Below, in pieces: positions 1,616 through 11,850 of a stretch of DNA of 11,850 nt. The notes under the pieces are model-generated. The model worked only from the letters and a program-made list of their open reading frames with translations, ran no database searches and was not told the origin of the DNA. The stretch covers positions 1 through 11,850 of the forward strand of contig DATIKP010000078.1 of NCBI GenBank assembly GCA_035477455.1, read 5' to 3'. Every line of letters starts with the position of its first letter. The first letter of the stretch is position 1. Origin of the DNA: Atribacteraceae bacterium (GTDB lineage: Bacteria > Atribacterota > Atribacteria > Atribacterales > Atribacteraceae). Position numbers and translations under genes: made by a program.

Positions 1616-2224
1616 CTAAAAAAGGAAATCAAGAACGGATCCAAAAATGCCGTTCAATAGGCCGACCAAGCCACTGCGCTCCCTCGGCCGCAGAGTCCCA
1701 TCCAGTTTGATCACCGCATCGAGCACCTGGGTGGACAAAACCGAATTGTTCGCCGTAATGTCTCGGGGGCTGACTACCCCTTCAATGGTGAGGATTTCCC
1801 GCTGCTTGTTGAGGATCATCTCCTTGCTCCCCTTGATCCGGAGATTGCCGTTTTCCAGAACCTCGCTGACCTGGCAAGTAATCACCCCTCTCAGAGAAAA
1901 GTTCCGACTTTCCCCCCGTTGTGCCTGCCGGGAAGTCTCGCTGGATAAACCGGCAGGAGGAATGAAATCGAAGATCCCCGCTCCAGCCGCCAGGTTGATG
2001 TTGGTGCTCCGTCCCCCGCTGGATTGAGCATCACCGGAACCGGTTGTGTGCTCACTGACAATCACCATGATCGGATCCCCCGGACGCGAGGCTCTGAAAT
2101 CCGAGTAGGGATCCGCAAACCAGCCGTCATCGCTCCAAAGCGACTCCCCCCGGACCGGAAGGATCAGGCCACCGGCCAGAGTCGCACCGAGCACCAGGCT
2201 AAGTAATAACCGGTCATGTCTCAT
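1616..2224 (-). CDS. flgH: Flagellar L-ring protein FlgH (202 aa). It has no lipobox cysteine.
   Basis: Full ORF. The FlgH-like core GDPIMVIVSEHTTGSGDAQS...NLRIKGSKEMILNKQREILTIEGVVSPRDI is present. The start ATG overlaps the flgA stop (ATGA, 2221..2224). The signal peptide has no Cys; the only Cys in the protein is far downstream. Confidence 0.88.
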   Translation of the reverse strand: MRHDRLLLSLVLGATLAGGLILPVRGESLWSDDGWFADPYSDFRASRPGDPIMVIVSEHTTGSGDAQSSGGRSTNINLAAGAGIFDFIPPAGLSSETSRQAQRGESRNFSLRGVITCQVSEVLENGNLRIKGSKEMILNKQREILTIEGVVSPRDITANNSVLSTQVLDAVIKLDGTLRPRERSGLVGLLNGIFGSVLDFLF

Positions 2225-3246
2225 CGTATCTCCACCTCCACCAATCTTTCCCCAATGACTTGGGCCTGAACCCGTTTCCGGGATTCCGGATTCTCTACGA
2301 CAATGCTCTCTCCCAACGATCCGTTTCCCCGGGCACGGCCGGTGGCGGTCACGGTAACCAAGCCATTCCTGGCTACCATGGTTACCAAGTCCCCCCGCTC
2401 GATCAAGGTTTCCTTCTGAACCTTCTCCGGAGAGATTACTTCACCGGGACGCATAGCCCGTCGGACCTCAAGCCCGATGACCTCATTCAGAGAAGCGAAA
2501 CCCTGATCATTACCCGCGGACAACGCTTCCGGCAAGACCTGCACTTGGTCGGCGCCAATTACGTCACCCGGCCGGAGATGGTCTATGGTTCTGACGGTGT
2601 CCCGAAAAACCTTGAGGCCAAAGGTCACGCTTTCCCGCTGTTCGTAGCCTCCCGCTGCGCTCACGGTAAAGTGAGCGGTCCCCCGGCCCCACGGCTTAAG
2701 TCCGGAAGGAATGAAGAGTTGGAGGGTGCTCTCGGGAGGAACGGTCAGGTCCTCGGTGGCTCCCAGCGGCTGGATTTCCACCGCTTGGGCGAAGGGAAAG
2801 AGGCGTAAGAGTTCTTCTTCAATCATGGTGCTCATGGCTGACCAGGGGATAATCTCACCGGCAAAGACCACGCGAGAATACTCCGCTCCGGAAAAATGGA
2901 TAAAAGCGAGGCCGGGAATCCTTCTCGCCGCCACCCGGTCGAAGATTTCCTGGGGACGGATCATCCGGGCTTCCCCGGGAGCGGGGACATAACCCAAGTC
3001 GAGCCGGCGTAGTTCCCCCTCCCAGTAAACATCCGGATAAGAAATCTCCGCCACTTCCCCGAGAACGAGGCTCTCGGCCAGGAGCGTCACGTTCGGACGG
3101 AGAGCAACAGACAGGGTCAGGGCCCAGACCGGTCCTACCCAGCCCCCGAGAAAAAGCACAATACCGGCGAATAACCAACCCACTGCGTATTTCATCGCGC
3201 GCATCCGGTTACCGCTTGAGATTGTTCGAAATCTGGAGCATTTCAT
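2221..3246 (-). CDS. flgA: Flagellar P-ring assembly chaperone FlgA (SAF-domain C-terminus). The start is uncertain: ATG at 3246, 3204 or 3195.
   Basis: The C-terminal ...RGDLVTMVARNGLVTVTATGRARGNGSLGESIVVENPESRKRVQAQVIGERLVEVEI matches the FlgA/SAF pattern. The longest ORF overlaps flgG by 38 bp. The internal start at 3195 (MKYAVGWLFAGIVLFLGGWVGPVWA) gives a clean signal peptide and a 14-bp gap after the flgG stop. Confidence 0.85.
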   Translation of the reverse strand: MKCSRFRTISSGNRMRAMKYAVGWLFAGIVLFLGGWVGPVWALTLSVALRPNVTLLAESLVLGEVAEISYPDVYWEGELRRLDLGYVPAPGEARMIRPQEIFDRVAARRIPGLAFIHFSGAEYSRVVFAGEIIPWSAMSTMIEEELLRLFPFAQAVEIQPLGATEDLTVPPESTLQLFIPSGLKPWGRGTAHFTVSAAGGYEQRESVTFGLKVFRDTVRTIDHLRPGDVIGADQVQVLPEALSAGNDQGFASLNEVIGLEVRRAMRPGEVISPEKVQKETLIERGDLVTMVARNGLVTVTATGRARGNGSLGESIVVENPESRKRVQAQVIGERLVEVEIR

Positions 3247-3997
3247 CAGCTGTGGTTATAGCCTTGGCGTTGACTTCGTAGGCCCGCTGGGCACTGATCA
3301 TCCGCACCATCTCTTTGACTATCTGAACGTTGGACATCTCCAGAAAACCCTGTGCCAGGCTCCCAAAGCCAGCCAGGCCGGGTACCCCCATCTGTGGTTC
3401 TCCAGAGGAGGCGGTGGCCCGATAGAGGTTCCGCCCCAGGCTGGTCAGGCCGGCCGGATTAATGAAACGTACGAGTTCGATCACGCCGACTTCCTGGGGT
3501 TCGATTTCCCCGGGAATCTGGACGGACACGATCCCATCCTGCCCAACGGTTATCGATTCCGCCTCAGGGGGAACAGTAATCGGCGGTTCCAACAAAAACC
3601 CATCATTGGTCACCACCTGTCCCAGGGCGTCGAGTTTGAAAGAGCCGTCCCGGGAATAGGCGATTTCACCATCCGGCAGCAGAATCTGGAAAAAGCCGTT
3701 TCCTTCAATGACCAGATCAAGGGGGTTGCGGGTCTCATACATGTCTCCCTGAAAAAACATTTTCTGTACGGCCGCCGGGCGCGTACCCAGACCGACTTCA
3801 ATGCCTACCGGCACCTGGGTCGCTTCCGTGGTCGGAGCGCCGCTGACCCGAATGGTCTGATACATAATATCCTGAAAATCCACCCGGCTCTTTTTGAAGC
3901 CCGTTGTATTCACATTGGCGAGATTGTTGGCGATCACGTCGATATCCAGTTGTCTGGACATCATTCCGGTCGCCGCGGTCCACAAAGCCCGTATCAT
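3209..3997 (-). CDS. flgG: Flagellar basal-body distal rod protein FlgG (262 aa)
   Basis: N-terminal MIRALWTAATGMMSRQLDIDVIANNLANVNTTGFKKSRVDF and C-terminal ...VNAKAITTADEMLQISNNLKR are canonical for the rod/hook FlgG family. An SD ggggaggga lies 5 nt upstream of the ATG on the minus strand. Confidence 0.93.
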   Translation of the reverse strand: MIRALWTAATGMMSRQLDIDVIANNLANVNTTGFKKSRVDFQDIMYQTIRVSGAPTTEATQVPVGIEVGLGTRPAAVQKMFFQGDMYETRNPLDLVIEGNGFFQILLPDGEIAYSRDGSFKLDALGQVVTNDGFLLEPPITVPPEAESITVGQDGIVSVQIPGEIEPQEVGVIELVRFINPAGLTSLGRNLYRATASSGEPQMGVPGLAGFGSLAQGFLEMSNVQIVKEMVRMISAQRAYEVNAKAITTADEMLQISNNLKR

Positions 3998-4078
3998 GGA
4001 TACTCCCTCCCCCGTTCAGGCCTCCGCCGTGCGGTCCGGCCTGGTTATTCTCTCTGTCGATCGACGACGGACACTCTC

Positions 4079-4837
4079 TTAACGAAGCCGGGCGATATCG
4101 TTCACGGCCCGCTGTAAGGCCAAATCCTGGGACTGGATCGCCCGTTGCGCGGCTTCAAATTTACGCAGAGTCTCGATCATGGTCACCATAGCTTCAACAA
4201 CGTTCATATTCGAGCGTTCAAGCGAGCCCTGCACGACCCGAAAACCAACCGCCTCCCGAGGTTCAACCAGATCGTCAACCGGGAAAAAGTTATTGAGACC
4301 GCGCTTCACGAGGAGATTCCGATCGTCAAAATCGACTACCCGCAGTTGGTCGACCTCCTCATCATCGACCCGGATCCTCCCCTGGTCATCGACCAGGAAC
4401 GTTCCCCCCGGAGGAAGAACGATCTCCCCGGTTGTCCCCAATACCGGGAACCCATCCACGTTTACCAGGCGGCCATCGGTATCGAGGGCAAAATTCCCCG
4501 CCCGGGTATACCCCTCACCTTCCGGGGTGGCGACCACAAAAAACCCCCCTCCCTGCAGAGCGAAATCAAGATGATTTCCGGTAGTCTCGATCCGCCCTTG
4601 CGAAAAATCGGTCTGGTGTTCACTAATCAGCTGGGCCCCTATCGACAGACTTCCGATGGAGATCGGCGACTGCTCATCGGTAAACCGGGAGATCGCCCTT
4701 TCGTAAACCGCTTCCGCTCGCAAGAGATCCGCCTTGAACCCCGGTGTCTCGATATTTGCCAGGTTATTGGCCAGCACTCCCTGCTTGATTTCGAATACGT
4801 TCATTCCCGATGCAGCGGTATAAATTCCCCGGATCAC
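4079..4837 (-). CDS. flgF: Flagellar basal-body rod protein FlgF (FlgF/FlgG family). The start is called at GTG 4837 rather than at the ORF-track start 4933.
   Basis: From the GTG the protein begins VIRGIYTAASGMNVFEIKQGVLANNLANIETPGFKAD, the conserved FlgF N-terminus. A perfect SD AAAGGAGG lies 7 nt upstream of the GTG at 4835..4837 (minus strand). The extra 32 aa of the ORF-track model have no family resemblance. Confidence 0.85.
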   Translation of the reverse strand: MIRGIYTAASGMNVFEIKQGVLANNLANIETPGFKADLLRAEAVYERAISRFTDEQSPISIGSLSIGAQLISEHQTDFSQGRIETTGNHLDFALQGGGFFVVATPEGEGYTRAGNFALDTDGRLVNVDGFPVLGTTGEIVLPPGGTFLVDDQGRIRVDDEEVDQLRVVDFDDRNLLVKRGLNNFFPVDDLVEPREAVGFRVVQGSLERSNMNVVEAMVTMIETLRKFEAAQRAIQSQDLALQRAVNDIARLR

Positions 4838-5092: not shown

Positions 5093-5159
5093 AGGTGCTG
5101 CAGAATATAGGCCTGATGCCCGCTCGCTGATCGTCCCGGCCGGAAGGGAGATGAAAAAC

Positions 5160-5837
5160 ATGCAAGAAGTGAAAGAAAAAGTCATTGATCTCGAAAAGAC
5201 CTTAAATGACTTCATCCTCCATACCAACCTCGGTTTTGCCAAGGTTCAGAATGCGCTCATCGAACAACGTTGGGCTCTGGACAAACTCAAGGAAGAGATG
5301 GTGGCTTACCGGGAACATTCGGCTCAGGAGATGAAAGAATTCAAGGAAGAGATGGTGGGCTCCCGCCGGGAACTCAACAAGATGTGGGGGGACCTGGCCA
5401 ACCGCCTGGGGACCGTGGCGGAAGACATCGTGGCTCCCAACCTACCGGTGATCGCCCGGCGGTATTTCGGCTGTGTCGGAGAACCGCTGACTCTGTATGT
5501 GCGCTCCTTCCGGTTCAAACGGAAAGACCGGTCCCAGCAACGGGAGTTCGATGTAATCGCCGAGTACGAAGAAATCGTGCTCTTCAACGAAACCAAGACC
5601 ACGTCCCGGCAAAGCTATATCGATGACTTTCTCGCCTTTCTCCCCCAACTCCCGGACTACTGGCCGGAGTTCACGGGAAAAAAGATCATCCCCATCTATG
5701 CCGCCCTGTATATCCCGGAAAACCAGGTGGCCTACGCCACCCAGCGGGGTCTTTACGTTTTGGCCCTGCGTGGAGAAACCATGGATCTCCTCAACTACCA
5801 TGCGGTCAAACCGGTCGAAGAACCACTGAGCGACTGA
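5160..5837 (+). CDS. Hypothetical protein with an N-terminal coiled-coil and a C-terminal PD-(D/E)XK-like nuclease fold. It resembles the DUF3782-type family. An alternative start is ATG 5151.
   Basis: Residues 1-75 are heptad-rich (KEKVIDLEKTLNDF...LDKLKEEMVAYREH...FKEEMVGSRRELNKMWG). Nucleotides tcaaggaagagatggtgg are duplicated at 5287..5304 and 5341..5358. The C-terminal part has ...REFDVIAEYEEIVLFNETKTT..., a D-x(12)-E-x-K arrangement. The KMWGDLANRLG...V pattern is what I remember of the Thermus/archaeal DUF3782 paralogs. The GGGAG SD is spaced 9 nt from ATG 5160. Confidence 0.65.
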   Translation: MQEVKEKVIDLEKTLNDFILHTNLGFAKVQNALIEQRWALDKLKEEMVAYREHSAQEMKEFKEEMVGSRRELNKMWGDLANRLGTVAEDIVAPNLPVIARRYFGCVGEPLTLYVRSFRFKRKDRSQQREFDVIAEYEEIVLFNETKTTSRQSYIDDFLAFLPQLPDYWPEFTGKKIIPIYAALYIPENQVAYATQRGLYVLALRGETMDLLNYHAVKPVEEPLSD

Positions 5838-6293
5838 GCGATCCTTTCGTTTATCCCACCCGCAACGTGACCGGGCGGGGTCCTGCCACTGGAACAACTT
5901 CCAAAAGAAGGGGGTCAACCGGATATAACCGATTTTTTGCATGATCCTTCCTCTATCCATCGCTTCCCACCTTCTTCGCCTGCGGCGAAGATTTCTGCCA
6001 GTGCCGCCCGGTACCGGGGGCACATAGGGACCGTTCTTCTGTTCCAGAGGGACGTGGTCGTTTTTCCGGTAGGGCGGGCGGCGGGCCTAAGGAGATCCCC
6101 CGCCTTTACCCTTTACCCTACGCCCAGGAAGGCCCGGCTCCAGTCCGGAACCCCATCTCCCCGGGAGAGGTGCGTAACTTCTCGCTGGCTGGTATCCTTT
6201 TCATGGGTGGATGGCCCAACTCTTTAGATTTCCCTCAAATGTACTGTAGCACAACGGCCATCCACTTTTTGTTTTTACAGGAATTGTAAGACA

Positions 6294-6349
6294 GATTTTA
6301 CTGCAAAAACTCATTTCACCGAGGCCCCGTTGCCATCAGCAACGCCTCA
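6294..6349 (-). repeat. Copy B of the 56-bp inverted repeat; see copy A at 1..56
   Basis: Manual reverse-complement alignment gives 54/56 identity. It lies at the junction between GC-rich (left) and AT-rich (right) DNA. Confidence 0.8.
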
Positions 6350-6401
6350 TCTGGCATTTTCTTGCACGCATCAATGACCACGTCCGGTTGCAGTGCTGCT
6401 G

Positions 6402-6428
6402 AAAAGGCCATCCTTGGCCTTTTTACTT
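6402..6428. terminator. Possible bidirectional intrinsic terminator: aaaaGGCCA-tcct-TGGCCtttt followed by tac
   Basis: A 9-bp perfect stem (core GGCCA/TGGCC) with a 4-nt loop. Both strands have T-runs after the stem. It is short, so this is a weak call. It lies downstream of the DUF3782-like gene and of repeat copy B. Confidence 0.3.
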
Positions 6429-6488
6429 CGAAAATGCGGTGATTTCGGCGGCTGATTCAGGCAGCTCAGGCCCAGGCTTCCTTCGTTC

Positions 6489-6502
6489 TTTTGCAGCAAA
6501 AT
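6489..6502 (+). repeat. Third, partial direct copy of the repeat core: TTTTGCAGCAAAAT, a 14-bp exact match to 42..55 that includes the 13-bp palindrome
   Basis: Exact 14-mer shared with 42..55. The following bases are loosely similar (aatcaa(a)gat...gatct). Confidence 0.45.
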
Positions 6503-7277
6503 TACTTATTGCAGTAGAATCAAGATATGATCTAAACGGATCAAGAGAAAAGTCTTAACAAAATATCTTTTCTATGTTATCTTTGAATTAAGTGGTAAGC
6601 TTTTGGAGTTTTTTGATGGCTACAACCACAACAAAAGGTTGAAGAAAATAGATACCTCGCCTTTACAGGCGGGAAGTGCCCGCTAGATTAAATTATAAAA
6701 CACAGCGGAATACCTAAAAGAAACCAAAGATATAGTCTTACAACGTATCGTTATCTAACAATTATAAATGAATACCATATCAATCACCGGGATTTTTGTG
6801 CGAACCGGTTGTATTATGCGGTTTTTTATGCCGTCAGTGCCGCGTTGACCAACCGGAACCAGCACTAGCGGAAAACTTTAGAATCCGGGTTGCATTTCAG
6901 CGAGAATTTGTTAAAACTAATTTATTCTCCTCTTATGGCGGAATTATACGACGCATTACTTTGTGACCGTGAAGAAGCCGATACATGGTTTATTCGGAAT
7001 TCGATCCAAAAATTTTGCAGGAGGAATCGACTCAATTTAAAGAGTTCCTTAATGTTTTTCTTTTCAAGAGTCAGTACAAAAAGAAGAGCATTCAAAAAAA
7101 ATATTTGTAAGAGGTGAATTTAAGCCTCCGGTATGTTTATAGTGGATAACGGGGAAAAGGAGAACATTGATCGCCGTTCCATGACTACTTCTCTCTTGTT
7201 GACTTGATCATTAATTTTAGGGGGCCAGTCAGATGATGGGTCAAAACTACTAGCGGGTGAGACGGTGAAGGAGCAAA

Positions 7278-10271
7278 ATGCGTAAGGGAGAGAGTTTCAG
7301 CGATATTCTCATTCAAGCCCTGCCGGTCTTCTTCGTCGCTATCGATGTCGATGGCAAGACGATGATGATGAATGAGGCGATGCGAAACGCGCTCGGCTAT
7401 ACCGTTAATGAGGTGTTAGGAAAGGATTATCTGACGAATTTCGTCCCCCAGAGTGACCGCGGATCGCTCTCCCAAATATTCGAAAAACTGGCAGGTTCGC
7501 GCGAGCCGATGGTAAACGAGAATCGTGTGCTGACCAGGGACGGCCGAGAACTTCTCGTCGAATGGCATGGCCGGCCGATCTTCACCGAAGAAGGCGAATA
7601 CGACTTCTTCTACGGGATAGGGATCGACATCACCGAACGGAAGCGGAACCAGAGGAAGATCGCGCACCTTAACCTTGCACTGCGCGCCATCAGTAACGTC
7701 AACCAGTTCATCGTCACCGAGAAGGAGCGCGATCGACTGGTACAGGGTGTCTGCGACAGGCTCAGCGAGGCGCACGGCTATCATACCGCCTGGATCGGTC
7801 TACTCAATGAAGAAAAAGGCCTTATTACGGTAGGACAGTCCCCCTCAAGCCAGGAGTCCATAGCGCCGACCGCCCATCTGCTGCGCGGTCGGTTGCCGAT
7901 CTGCGCCCAGAAGGCACTGGCGCAACCTGGAGTCCAGGTAAGCGCAGAGCCACATGCAGAGTGTGCTGGCTGTTCTCTGTCCGGCACGCATCGTGGTCGG
8001 GGAGTGATGGCCATCCGGTTGGAACATGCGGGAAAGGTCTACGGAATGCTCACTGCGTCCATCCCCGCCGATTTCATTTTCGATAAGGAAGAGTACGAAC
8101 TATTCGCTGAAGTCGCGCTGGACATCGCGTTTGCCCTGAGCAACATCGAGCTGGAAGCTAAGCGCCAGCAGGCTGAGGAAGCCCTCACCCGCAAGGTGCA
8201 AGAGCTGGATGCCCTTAACGCAGCCTCGCAGGTGGTGAACGCCTCTCTCGATCTGGATCAGGTGTTGGGAAAGATCGTGTCGCTGGCGAAAGAGGCGGTG
8301 GGCGCCGATTACACCAGCATCCTGCTGGTCGATGAAAAAAGCGGCACGGTGCGTAGCTTTGAGAATTTTCCAGATGTACCGTCAATCGAGGATCGCGCTC
8401 AGGAGCATGGCCTTACCCGTCTGGTCATGGGCACAGGACAGATGGTGATCGTCGATGAGATCGGTGAGGACGGTACGATTGTCCCGGAACTGGGTGCCGG
8501 GGTGCCGCGCCTGGTCAATCCGCATATGGTGGGGACAAATATCAAGTCGGTAGCCTATCTGCCGCTAACCGGCAAGGCCGGTTCGATTGGAGTCCTCCAC
8601 CTGCGCAACCTGCGGCCGCAAGCATTTCGTGGTCAAGAAACGCTGCTGACCACCTTTGCCAATCAGGCGGCTATTGCCGTAGAGAACGCACGGCTGTACG
8701 AGACGGTCTCCCGGGAACTCACCGAGCGCAAGCGAGCGGAGGAGGCGTTGCGGAAGAGCGAAAGACGTCTTCGGACAATGAACAGGGTGCTTGCGAAGCT
8801 ATCGCGAAGTATGAAGATAAAAAACGGCGATCCGGGCGCCTTCCTGAAGGAGATTACCGAGGTTGCGGCCCGCACGCTCGAGGTTGAACGGGCCAGCATA
8901 TGGTTATACGATGAAAAAGGTATAAAGATTCAGTGCCTGGACCAGTATGAACTGGGTGCCGGAAGACATGCCCAGGGCTTCGAGCTGGTTCAGGCAGACT
9001 ATCCCGCTTACTTTCGGGCCTTGGAAGAGGAGCGCGCTATCGTGGCCGACAATGTACTCACCGACCCCCGAACCAGAGAACTTTCGGAGTCTTACCTTTT
9101 TCCTCACGGTATTACCTCCATACTCGATGCCCCGCTTCGGTTGGGCGGCCGAACGGTAGGGGTCATCGCTCATGAACATGTCGGGCCCGCTCGCCGGTGG
9201 ACGCCGGATGAGCAGAATTTCGCCGGATCGCTGGCGGATTTCGTCTCGCTGGCCATGGAAGCGCAGGAGCGCTGGCAAGCGGAGGAAGCGCTGGCGGAGT
9301 CGCAGTGGAAGATAGAGAACCTGAACAAGATAACCCGCCGCTTGGCGGTTTGCGCAACGGAAGATGAAGCCTATCGATTGACTATGGAGGCGGCGGAACG
9401 AATCCTGGGGTTCTTGCTCTGCTTCCTGGATATCGTGGAAGGAGACCGGATGGTGGTGAAAGCGACCTCATCGGAATTGCCTCCCGGGACGGCCGTGGAG
9501 AGGTCTCTGGCGGAGGATGAACTGGCGGCCAGGACCTACCATACCGGTAAAACGATTGTCTTTGGTAGTCCGGATGAGGTTCCCGAAGCCAGGCCGGCAA
9601 GGAAGGATTTCCGCTCGGGGATCTGCGCGCCGATTGGCGATATCGGGGTTTTTCAGGTCGTTGCCACGGATGTCGGTGCCTTTACCGAAGATGATGTACA
9701 CCGGCTTGAGCTTCTGCTCGGACAAACCGCCGAAGCGATCAAGCGGATTCGTCTGCAGAACGAACTGAGGGAACAGGCCATCCGCGATCCGTTGACCGGG
9801 GTCTACAACCGCCGCTACTTCACCCAGACAATCGAGCAGGAAGTCTCCCGCGCTGTGCGGCATAAGCGGCTGATCGCCTTCCTGATGATCGACGTCAACC
9901 GGTTTAAGGAGATAAACGATCGCTTCGGCCATCAGACCGGTGATCGCGTTCTGCAAGCGGTGGGAAGACTTCTTGCTCAGCAGGTGCGCGAGGAAGACAT
10001 CGTGGTCCGCTACGGCGGTGATGAATTCCTGATTGTTCTGCCCGAGACTGATGGCGGAGAGGTAGACACTGTAAAAAAGCGGATCGGTACAGCGATTGCC
10101 CGGATTAATGAAACGAGCAAGTTGATCGACTTTCCGGTTACCCTGTCGCTTGGTTGTGCTTACTGGAATCCGGGTGGCTCGGAATCGATCGAGGAAGTTC
10201 TGGCCTGGGCGGACCAGCGGATGTATGGGGAGAAACGGAAACAGGGTTCAGGCCATAGGTCAAAACCATGA
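7278..10271 (+). CDS. Multidomain diguanylate cyclase: PAS, Cys-containing GAF-like domain, three GAF domains and GGDEF (997 aa)
   Basis: SD GAAGGAG lies 4-5 nt before the ATG. The N-terminal PAS region covers about aa 8-125. A GAF-like domain of about aa 140-290 carries C159, C209 and the CAGC motif (C229/C232, nt 7962..7973). Classical GAF cores lie at about aa 310-480, 510-670 and 690-820, separated by coiled-coil linkers. The C-terminal GGDEF domain starts near aa 836 (RDPLTGVYNRRYF). The motif R-Y-G-G-D-E-F is at nt 10008..10028, and the I-site RxxD (REED) is at nt 9987..9998. Confidence 0.93.
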   Translation: MRKGESFSDILIQALPVFFVAIDVDGKTMMMNEAMRNALGYTVNEVLGKDYLTNFVPQSDRGSLSQIFEKLAGSREPMVNENRVLTRDGRELLVEWHGRPIFTEEGEYDFFYGIGIDITERKRNQRKIAHLNLALRAISNVNQFIVTEKERDRLVQGVCDRLSEAHGYHTAWIGLLNEEKGLITVGQSPSSQESIAPTAHLLRGRLPICAQKALAQPGVQVSAEPHAECAGCSLSGTHRGRGVMAIRLEHAGKVYGMLTASIPADFIFDKEEYELFAEVALDIAFALSNIELEAKRQQAEEALTRKVQELDALNAASQVVNASLDLDQVLGKIVSLAKEAVGADYTSILLVDEKSGTVRSFENFPDVPSIEDRAQEHGLTRLVMGTGQMVIVDEIGEDGTIVPELGAGVPRLVNPHMVGTNIKSVAYLPLTGKAGSIGVLHLRNLRPQAFRGQETLLTTFANQAAIAVENARLYETVSRELTERKRAEEALRKSERRLRTMNRVLAKLSRSMKIKNGDPGAFLKEITEVAARTLEVERASIWLYDEKGIKIQCLDQYELGAGRHAQGFELVQADYPAYFRALEEERAIVADNVLTDPRTRELSESYLFPHGITSILDAPLRLGGRTVGVIAHEHVGPARRWTPDEQNFAGSLADFVSLAMEAQERWQAEEALAESQWKIENLNKITRRLAVCATEDEAYRLTMEAAERILGFLLCFLDIVEGDRMVVKATSSELPPGTAVERSLAEDELAARTYHTGKTIVFGSPDEVPEARPARKDFRSGICAPIGDIGVFQVVATDVGAFTEDDVHRLELLLGQTAEAIKRIRLQNELREQAIRDPLTGVYNRRYFTQTIEQEVSRAVRHKRLIAFLMIDVNRFKEINDRFGHQTGDRVLQAVGRLLAQQVREEDIVVRYGGDEFLIVLPETDGGEVDTVKKRIGTAIARINETSKLIDFPVTLSLGCAYWNPGGSESIEEVLAWADQRMYGEKRKQGSGHRSKP

Positions 10272-10393
10272 GCGCTATTCTCATAAAAGTCCTGTCGGTA
10301 CCTTCGTCGCCGATCATGTCGATGGCAAGATGATAACGAGCTTACAGGCGCTTCGGCTGGCGCAGGCCAATAGGCGAGTGCACCAGCCATTAT

Positions 10394-10579
10394 TCATCCT
10401 GCATCTTTCGTCATTTTTATATTCTTTTTCCTTTGCTTTACGCATTCGGTTAAAAGGTATTCAATTTGCCCGTTGATGGAACGAAAGTCATCTTCCGCCC
10501 AAGCCGCCAATTCCTTCCAAAGAGAAAGCGACAACCGCAATAACAACTGCTTTTTATCTCTGTCGTCGTTGGGCATCAT
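10394..10579 (-). CDS. Ribbon-helix-helix (Arc/CopG/MetJ-like) DNA-binding protein, about 61 aa
   Basis: ..[41 protein letters not shown].. fits beta-strand plus two helices (compare RLPeELheaLkeaAeaegRSlNaEIvarLe). The ORF-track start at 10582 is TTG; the first ATG is at 10579. It lies 17 nt after the SPFH stop codon on the same strand. Confidence 0.65.
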
Positions 10580-10596
10580 CAAGGTTCTTCGTTTAA

Positions 10597-11616
10597 CTAT
10601 GAATACAAAGTACCACTGTTGACAATCGGCTGGACGTCCCGATTTCCGCAGAGGACCACGAGTAGATTACTGACCATTGCCGCCTTGCGTTCTTCGTCGA
10701 GCTTTACGATGCCGTTCTCACTCAGTTTGGTCAGTGCCATTTCCACCATACCCACCGCGCCTTCCACGATCAACTGCCGGGCATCGACTATGGCTGAAGC
10801 CTGCTGTCTTTGGAGCATGGCGGCGGCGATTTCCGGTGCGTAGGAAAGATGGGTAATGCGGGCCTCCATAACTTCCAGTCCGGCCATCTCCACTTTTTCC
10901 TGAATTTCTACCCGGAGTTTTTCCGCTACCTCCTGACTGCTGCCGCGTAAAGACATTTCACTGTCTTGGTCAGGTGTGTCGTAGGGATAGTTCCGAACTA
11001 TGTTACGCAGCGCGGAGTCACACTGTATGGAAAGAAACTCCTTGAAATTGTCGACATTAAATACCGCCTTGGCTGTGTTAACTACTTTCCAGATTACAAC
11101 CACCCCTATAATGATCGGGTTGCCCAGTTTGTCGTTTATTTTTTGCTGGTCATTGTTTAGCGTAATGGCTTTCAGCGAGATGACCTTACTCGGTGCGGAC
11201 AGGCGCTGAGCCTTGTCCAGTCCGGCCGACAGAATAGCGGTAGCAATGCCAGTCGTGGAAGCGGCCGGATTCAGGGCGCTGACAAAGGGATTGACAAAGA
11301 AAAACCCTTCGCGCTTAAGCGATCCGTAGTATTTTCCAAAAAGGGTCAAGACCAGCGCCTCATTAGGACGCAGTACTTTCAACCCGGCAAAGATGATGGA
11401 TCCGACAAATAGATAAGCAAGCCCTGCAACGATCAAAATGGTGCCAAGTGCGTTATCCCCGCCGGCTTCAAATCTCATAATCCCTCTAACCATTGCCGCG
11501 ACTGCGGCTCCCATGAGGATTATATTGAGGAGCAAAATGGGCATGCCGGCCATGGCTGGCGGGCGGATTTCCTCGTGATGCACCAGGCCTTCACGTACTA
11601 TGGCTTTTTCAGACAT
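10597..11616 (-). CDS. SPFH / band-7 (stomatin-prohibitin-flotillin-HflKC) domain membrane protein, about 339 aa. The start is called at ATG 11616; the ORF-track start 11622 is TTG.
   Basis: Two N-terminal hydrophobic helices ([38 protein letters not shown]) are followed by [30 protein letters not shown]... and a long SPFH-like core. Helical C-terminal segments follow ([26 protein letters not shown]...). The SD AGGAGA lies 9 nt upstream of ATG 11616. Confidence 0.85.
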
Positions 11617-11801
11617 AATCAATCATCTCCTTACAATATGTATTTGATATTATAATAATATTATTTATATAGTATGATGGAGCCACATAATTGTCAAGTG
11701 TTTATTGCACAGGATGTAATTGCTGCGTACTCCGGAGCAAATCGCCCGGTGTTCCGGCCGAAGCCGGCCGCCTCCGGGTTTATGAGCAGCGTACGCTATC
11801 C

Positions 11802-11850
11802 ATGCACAAAATTAAAGAAGTCCTGCGCTTAAAGTATGATGGGGGGGTTA
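11802..11850 (+). mobile_element. N-terminal 16 codons of a probable IS21-family IstA-like transposase (MHKIKEVLRLKYDGGL...), truncated by the window end
   Basis: Hand-translated from ATG 11802. The pattern M-x-KI+E+LRL-x4-GLS is the N-terminal HTH start I associate with IS21-family IstA proteins. Only 48 nt are visible. Confidence 0.4.

Follow-up and report, generated by a model that had tools for sequence, protein, structure and literature searches.

An SPFH scaffold operon without NfeD, probably autoregulated by a minimal Arc-type repressor

Results

Genes and proteins at the locus

We analysed a two-gene module near one end of contig DATIKP010000078.1 from an Atribacteraceae bacterium (assembly GCA_035477455.1); the window referred to below is the whole stretch of 11,850 nt, which makes up the complete contig. 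The module consists of a gene for an SPFH/Band-7 protein followed by a small gene for a putative ribbon-helix-helix (RHH) protein, and an initial annotation made from the sequence alone had drawn attention to it. Its genic features are as follows.

10597–11616, minus strand: SPFH/Band-7 gene, 339 amino acids (listed open reading frame and Pfam match)
11627–11632, minus strand: Shine–Dalgarno sequence AAGGAG, 10 nt 5′ of the SPFH ATG at 11616 (read from the sequence)
10394–10579, minus strand: Arc-type RHH gene encoding a proposed autorepressor, 61 amino acids (open reading frame list and family profile)

The RHH start lies 17 nt past the SPFH stop, and an alternative TTG start at 10582 would shorten the gap to 14 nt. 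The initial annotation had read the pair as a gene for an SPFH protein with two transmembrane (TM) helices and, 17 nt on, an RHH gene on the same strand, and the open reading frames, the Pfam match and the hydrophobic helices of the first product all agree with it.

An NCBI entry named ‘SPFH domain-containing protein’, from an Atribacteraceae metagenome-assembled genome (MAG), matches the SPFH protein at 100% identity; an exact-protein look-up returned no further contig with an identical protein. Pfam places a Band_7 domain (PF01145) at residues 83–283 (E=4e-26; 92.5 bits, cut-off 23.6). The protein is laid out as an N-terminal two-helix hairpin, the SPFH domain, a long C-terminal helix and a highly conserved C-terminus. 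Hydrophobic helices at residues ~24–45 and ~59–79 have a mean Kyte–Doolittle hydropathy of 2.3–2.4, and the secondary structure predicted from a low-confidence model (predicted local distance difference test (pLDDT) score of 48) comprises helices at residues 24–50 and 55–78 and a 40-residue helix at 261–300. Across the family, K+R falls from 3.6 in the N-tail to 0.7 in the loop between the helices and rises to 2.9 beyond TM2, a positive-inside pattern from which we infer that the SPFH domain is cytoplasmic.

Among characterised subfamilies, only HflK matched the protein in NCBIfam (E 0.016), and the best PDB match of an SPFH profile was the stomatin PH1511 (E 0.018). The stomatin and HflK matches are both marginal, and a PDB search with the single SPFH sequence gave no match. 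Judged by these comparisons, the protein falls within the Band_7 superfamily and in no characterised subfamily. Hinderhofer et al. 2009 (PMC2636767) distinguished SPFH6–12 as NfeD-less subfamilies without documented members, and the window protein probably belongs to one of these small subfamilies.

The RHH protein has a basic N-tail, a β-strand (KKQLLLRLS), helix A, an RSINGQ turn, helix B and a short basic tail, and 29 of its 61 positions are invariant in an alignment of the close family. When 12 family members were searched against Pfam, 11 gave weak matches to RHH_5, HicB, ParD_like or Arc (best E 4.7e-5). End-to-end alignment of the family profile with P22 Arc reached an hhalign probability of 82% (E 1e-5, 44 columns) and set the invariant residues Q11, L13 and R15 opposite Arc Q9, N11 and R13, which are the base-contacting residues of Arc. 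A broader profile that included distant members had pArc (E 0.0033) and Arc chains as its top PDB matches; a narrower profile had a sole PDB match, to dehydrosqualene synthase, that arose by chance. The window protein carries Leu at the position of the usual helix-capping Pro of its relatives (LSLSLW versus LSPSLW). There is no sensor domain, and the family alignment shows no conserved toxin-neutralising tail: the tail is K/R-rich, variable and short. On this profile evidence, we assign the small protein to a distinct and very conserved clade of minimal Arc-type RHH proteins.

A conserved gene pair in at least five phyla

A scan with one genome for each species gave at least 586 confirmed SPFH loci, of which we kept the 80 that scored best, with 6-kb flanks. 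These 80 loci come from Bacillota, Treponema and Sphaerochaeta (Spirochaetota), Desulfovibrionaceae, Coriobacteriales and Alistipes, and represent at least five phyla. An RHH homologue lies downstream of SPFH on the same strand at every one of them (80/80), with a gap of no more than ~130 nt in 77 and commonly of 5–45 nt. Relatives of each protein form more than 8,000 sequence clusters spread over several phyla. Among the matches listed, SPFH relatives are 65–75% and RHH relatives 72–93% identical to the window proteins, and SPFH identity between phyla is 54–74%. The best relatives of the window SPFH protein are labelled Limnocylindrales and Dethiobacter (72–73% identity).

The association also holds from the other side and at greater distance. 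When we began with the RHH protein instead, taking one from a MAG labelled Solirubrobacterales and one from a MAG labelled Fermentimonas, the gene upstream encoded a Band_7 protein in both cases. SPFH homologues of 40–45% identity in Bacillus thuringiensis, Deinococcus and Prevotella retain the small downstream RHH gene. Pairwise identities of the SPFH and RHH proteins are correlated (Mantel r=0.70), and none of 999 permutations gave a value as high. The two genes travel together, by inheritance or by transfer.

Clustering of the flanking open reading frames from the 80 loci yielded no third conserved partner; the next commonest cluster was a generic ABC ATPase, at 11 loci. The 146 immediate flanking proteins are heterogeneous and of housekeeping type, with no Pfam family having more than four members. 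NfeD is missing from the 25 commonest families of these 146 proteins, a result that leaves room for one or two sporadic copies. As for partners in the window itself, there is only the RHH gene downstream of SPFH. The initial annotation had staked its proposal of an SPFH–RHH pairing without NfeD on the adjacency being conserved in related genomes, and that is what the 80 loci show. The adjacency is far beyond chance, and the pair is a conserved, NfeD-less two-gene module.

A GGDEF gene is found by or near the pair in the window (7278–10271) and in two unrelated loci, those of the Solirubrobacterales MAG (2462–4780 of the retrieved stretch) and the Fermentimonas MAG (9993–12177 of the retrieved stretch). 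This proximity is probably a coincidence, because GGDEF is not among the recurrent families of the 146 neighbours.

Existing annotations frequently overlook the small gene or give it a wrong name. NCBI names it ‘HicB family antitoxin’ in B. thuringiensis, ‘PTS ascorbate transporter subunit IIC’ in Deinococcus and elsewhere ‘hypothetical protein’; the first two labels are probably misannotations.

A phased palindromic operator over the promoter

The region upstream of the SPFH gene (11617–11700) has a GC content of 23.8%, matching the AT-rich promoter region of the initial annotation, and the string quoted there is present. The annotation had further pointed to 11623–11700 as the place for an operator palindrome of the RHH protein, and this region does hold a candidate, TAATATTA-N3-TAATATCA, that is conserved in related loci. 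The elements are listed in the direction of transcription.

11692–11697, minus strand: −35 element TTGACA (promoter prediction, 10/12 match, 17-nt spacer)
11669–11674, minus strand: −10 element TACTAT (promoter prediction)
11656–11663: operator sub-site 1, TAATATTA (consensus TGATATCA), over the predicted transcription start
11645–11652: operator sub-site 2, TAATATCA, 11 bp from sub-site 1
11634–11641: doubtful third sub-site, ACATATTG, in register, keeping the ATAT core alone (4/8 mismatches)

The consensus surfaced by k-mer counting in the 200 nt upstream of SPFH genes. It is an 8-bp palindrome that is repeated in tandem with a period of 11 bp, or one helical turn, an arrangement that recalls the tandem met-boxes of MetJ. 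Allowing up to 3 mismatches in 16 positions, TGATATCA-N3-TGATATCA was present in 68 of 78 upstream regions of 200 nt, and 57 had at most one mismatch; in a somewhat wider upstream window the operator was found at 77 of 78 loci, with two to four sites in register. Controls gave matches in 4 of 1,560 shuffled upstream regions and 5 matches in the 813 kb that make up the remainder of the same loci, and the signal was specific to the 11-bp period and its double, 22 bp. Third in-register sites are present in 24 of the 77 related loci, with four sites at one locus. Within the 11.85-kb window, TAATATTA-N3-TAATATCA (11645–11663) is the sole match, with 0.01 expected by chance.

The sites stand in a close relation to the core promoter, whose TTGACA occupies the equivalent place in most related loci. 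At 42 loci the first site doubles as an extended −10 element (TGATATCAT) about 15 nt past TTGACA, at 13 the sites occupy the spacer between −35 and −10, and at a few, including the window, they lie 2–10 nt past the −10 element and over the transcription start. The phased operator also accompanies the 40–45%-identical homologues of B. thuringiensis, Deinococcus and Prevotella. Its conservation across phyla and its overlap with the core promoter are new here.

A BLAST search with the operator only retrieved an operon on the Ligilactobacillus salivarius megaplasmid pMP1046A (1995–3239 of the retrieved stretch). Here the order is reversed: the operator array is followed by a gene for a 119-residue protein and then by one for a 270-residue SPFH protein that lacks the N-terminal hairpin. 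The 119-residue protein combines an N-terminal Arc-like RHH domain with a 70-residue C-terminal extension, and the operon is an independent recurrence of the link between RHH protein, SPFH protein and operator. By eye, the extension gave the impression of an NfeD-like OB domain, which was unsupported by Pfam and PDB sequence searches.

Arrays of this kind also occur on Campylobacter conjugative plasmids, which have 5–7 places with 11-bp-phased TGATATCA/TAATATCA repeats. On Campylobacter coli pCCDM116S (NZ_CP017870.1), one array (1975–2045 of the stretch) lies between traL and a small hypothetical gene adjoining a Fic gene. The Campylobacter arrays suggest a related RHH-type operator in the control of plasmid transfer.

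Discussion

An operon that probably represses itself

We consider it probable that the minimal Arc-type protein represses the very operon that encodes it together with the SPFH scaffold, giving negative autoregulation. The operon would be transcribed from a σ70-type promoter (TTGACA, 17 nt, TACTAT). Its first product would be a cytoplasm-facing SPFH/Band-7 scaffold that uses the N-terminal two-helix hairpin as an anchor, and its second the 61-residue Arc-type RHH protein, translated from 17 nt downstream. Dimers of the latter may bind cooperatively to the two (elsewhere up to four) TGATATCA palindromes spaced 11 bp apart, and occupancy of the operator on the −10/+1 region would occlude RNA polymerase. 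With repressor and scaffold encoded on one mRNA, the resulting negative feedback would clamp SPFH output at a set level, and its purpose may be to restrain or adjust the amount of a scaffold whose overproduction is probably harmful. Since the RHH protein has no sensor domain, the loop would either be purely homeostatic or respond to titration of the repressor by the SPFH protein. The initial annotation had offered autoregulation as one of several readings, and the conserved operator on the operon’s own promoter supports it.

Several points weigh against this interpretation. DNA binding and repression by the RHH protein are predictions from computational analysis. Taken alone, the window RHH protein scores below the Pfam gathering thresholds (RHH_5 E 0.016, ParD_like E 0.021), and AlphaFold2 models the monomer as one unbroken helix (residues 3–60, pLDDT 86.6) and not as strand–helix–helix. 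In our view, this model conflicts with the Arc alignment because an obligate dimer was modelled as a monomer from a shallow alignment. The structure model of the SPFH protein reaches a pLDDT of 48, and the presumed cage architecture and topology of this protein follow from sequence rules only. The window operator is itself degenerate, with 3 of 16 positions mismatched and G changed to A in both sites. Taking the best-scoring 80 of at least 586 loci introduces a bias toward close relatives. Finally, the motif is not exclusive to the SPFH–RHH module, because similar TGATATCA arrays are present on Campylobacter conjugative plasmids, and no SPFH gene is annotated in the 4 kb inspected on pCCDM116S.

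Alternative explanations

The RHH protein could be more than an autorepressor. It may also be a physical partner of the SPFH protein in the place of NfeD, with the SPFH protein acting as a membrane-anchored anti-repressor, an idea that we hold to be rather unlikely. The SPFH assembly would then sequester the RHH protein at the membrane so that the state of the scaffold or membrane would set operon expression, much as PspA controls PspF; this, too, is a tentative proposal with odds against it. Invariance of 29 of 61 RHH positions across phyla exceeds what DNA reading and dimer packing usually need, and there is no sensor domain to account for; conservation may, however, reflect a fixed operator and the dimer and tetramer interfaces of a very small protein. 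The nearly invariant SPFH C-terminus and the predicted cytoplasmic location of both proteins favour contact, as does the recurrence of an Arc-like RHH link with a hairpin-less SPFH protein, in reversed order, in L. salivarius, but the contact itself is hypothetical. The two proteins also co-diverge, which is expected of any co-inherited operon.

It is very improbable that the pair is an anti-phage module on mobile DNA, be it for defence, as the initial annotation had entertained, or for abortive infection. GC content below that of the flanking genes, a possible transposase start next to the pair, a patchy distribution over phyla that suggests transfer and matches of a few flanking proteins to defence models would fit such a role. 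Against this, searching both proteins against PADLOC-DB v2 returned no families at E≤0.1, and the PADLOC matches among the 146 neighbours were sporadic and mostly of generic ATPase type, with no enrichment of defence genes in what are diverse housekeeping surroundings. The very high sequence conservation is unlike that of fast-evolving defence genes. Phages and plasmids seldom carry the module: tblastn found 7 phage records, weak and unannotated, and 31 plasmid records, mostly megaplasmids or mislabelled chromosomes.

The Bacillus pair on NZ_CP151870.1, a record named ‘plasmid unnamed3’, sits among the chromosomal genes pcrA, purD, purH and that for heptaprenylglyceryl phosphate synthase.

Still less credible is a toxin–antitoxin or addiction module, also among the initial suggestions, in which a membrane SPFH protein would be toxic and the RHH protein would serve as antitoxin and autorepressor. 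The two-gene, probably autoregulated layout with an RHH protein, its weak ParD_like and HicB matches in Pfam, the NCBI name ‘HicB family antitoxin’ of the B. thuringiensis homologue and a possible insertion sequence (IS) beside the pair in this contig all recall such modules. However, the RHH protein is a DNA-binding fold with a short, variable basic tail and no conserved neutralising domain, and its partner matches Band_7 only; to our knowledge, SPFH is not a toxin family. Both proteins are unusually conserved and found in housekeeping contexts, and the scarcity of the module on plasmids and phages argues in the same direction.

That this is an ordinary stomatin-type operon with a coincidental regulator and an NfeD partner beyond the window can practically be set aside: the contig does stop 234 nt upstream of the SPFH start, leaving the locus’s own surroundings out of view, but RHH adjacency is complete in the 80 loci with their 6-kb flanks, clustering gave no conserved third gene, no Pfam family exceeds 4 of the 146 flanking proteins, NfeD is missing from the 25 commonest of these families, and the operator ties the RHH protein to the SPFH promoter.

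Comparison with known systems

The closest known operons are those that pair SPFH with NfeD (QmcA–YbbJ, YqiK–YqiJ, FloT/YuaG–YuaF and FloA/YqfA–YqeZ), which correspond to SPFH1, 2 and 5 of Hinderhofer et al. 2009 (PMC2636767). The module described here resembles them in its membrane-anchored Band_7 protein, tight two-gene operon, small dedicated partner, wide distribution and tendency to lateral transfer. It differs in the partner, which is predicted to be a cytoplasmic Arc-type DNA-binding protein and not a membrane NfeD/OB-fold protein.

With P22 Arc and Mnt, the small protein shares a minimal RHH size of ~55–60 residues, a collinear profile that includes the β-strand positions, an RS-x-N helix cap and sub-sites placed one helical turn apart over the promoter. 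It is unlike them in its ~25% identity and in an operator made of tandem perfect 8-bp TGATATCA palindromes, up to four in number. Its gene is also chromosomal and is conserved between phyla, and it is tied to an SPFH gene and not to phage immunity.

The phage-shock systems offer a parallel, with PspA–PspF and, in B. subtilis, PspA–YdjGHI, which includes the SPFH protein YdjI (PMC8581546). There, as proposed here, a membrane-integrity scaffold stands under a dedicated feedback regulator, and the parallel serves as a conceptual model only. The systems have no sequence relationship, the regulator here would be an RHH repressor and not an AAA+ activator, and sequestration here is hypothetical.

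RHH antitoxins such as ParD, CopG-like proteins and the C-terminal domain of HicB share with the module a proposed autorepressing RHH protein and the two-gene operon, as well as the weak ParD_like and HicB matches. Unlike type II toxin–antitoxin pairs, the module has no neutralising extension or recognisable toxin, its gene order is reversed relative to most such pairs, and it is highly conserved in a housekeeping context.

In a full-text literature search, no paper tied SPFH proteins to partners of the RHH, Arc or CopG type. We found no published description of an SPFH operon with a dedicated autorepressor in place of NfeD, and such an operon is likely to be new. If the RHH protein does switch between DNA and the SPFH protein, the module would be a widespread signalling device that leads from an SPFH microdomain scaffold to transcription through a TGATATCA-controlled promoter; of this we likewise found no description.

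Bacterial SPFH proteins are abundant and mostly obscure in function, and knowledge of them comes mainly from NfeD-linked or FtsH-linked members. The main value of the module is that it opens a large and so far uncharacterised family of SPFH proteins to experiment: the promoter–operator can serve as a reporter for inducers of the scaffold, the RHH protein as bait for a contact and the motif as a means to define the regulon. Homologues are available in tractable or medically relevant hosts, among them the Bacillus cereus group, DNA labelled Listeria and Enterococcus, Prevotella and other Bacteroidales, and gut Lachnospiraceae. In the Bacillus cereus/thuringiensis homologue the pair is WP_000660677.1 with WP_001085171.1, and complete genomes with the module include Sellimonas catena (NZ_CP173695.1) and Candidatus Contubernalis alkaliaceticus.

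Base composition and other features of the contig

The initial annotation had noted that the pair is lower in GC than the genes around it. This is so for overall GC (SPFH 51.5% and RHH 41.8%, against 53.7–58.3% in neighbouring genes), whereas the difference in GC at third codon positions (GC3) is small (0.585 and 0.524, against 0.60–0.69). The codon-usage distance of the SPFH gene, 0.101, is inside the range of host genes (0.076–0.121). For the horizontal transfer that had been proposed, composition thus makes a weak case if a recent event is meant, with GC3 and codon usage near those of the host. An older transfer of the module between phyla is likely, because SPFH proteins are 54–74% identical between phyla and the two genes co-diverge.

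Two further features flank the module.

11802–11850, plus strand: divergent open reading frame start MHKIKEVLRLKYDGGV, 16 codons, running off the contig end; outside the module
10355–10388, minus strand: GC-rich hairpin with a 10-bp stem and no U-tract, 6 nt past the RHH stop (fold z-score −2.5)

The first is the IS21-like fragment to which the pair had been linked. We take MHKIKEVLRLKYDGGV to resemble the N-termini of IS21-family IstA proteins, a likeness that no search confirmed: exact 41-nt and degenerate scans of metagenome contigs and a degenerate scan of viral contigs found nothing, nor did an NCBIfam search with the 20-residue translation at the contig end. With 16 codons to go by and a possible IS next to the pair on this contig alone, we do not uphold the link. 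The contig probably ends where it does because repeated elements break assemblies. As to the hairpin, a terminator scan called no intrinsic terminator after the RHH gene, and the structure is possibly a transcript 3′ end, a stabiliser or a stop shared with the convergent GGDEF gene.

Further along the window, a 228-residue open reading frame on the plus strand (5151–5837) has a coiled-coil-like N-terminus. It gave weak DUF3782 and CCDC90-like matches only, and no Pfam, NCBIfam or PADLOC family above threshold. Between it and the PAS-GAF-GGDEF gene, about 1.4 kb (5838–7277) contain no open reading frame above ~100 residues; GC is 0.455 overall and 0.375–0.395 around 6400–7200. Rfam, tRNA and tandem-repeat scans of the window, this region included, found nothing relevant, and the region could be made up of genes in decay, hold an RNA that escapes recognition or act as a long leader with a regulatory role.

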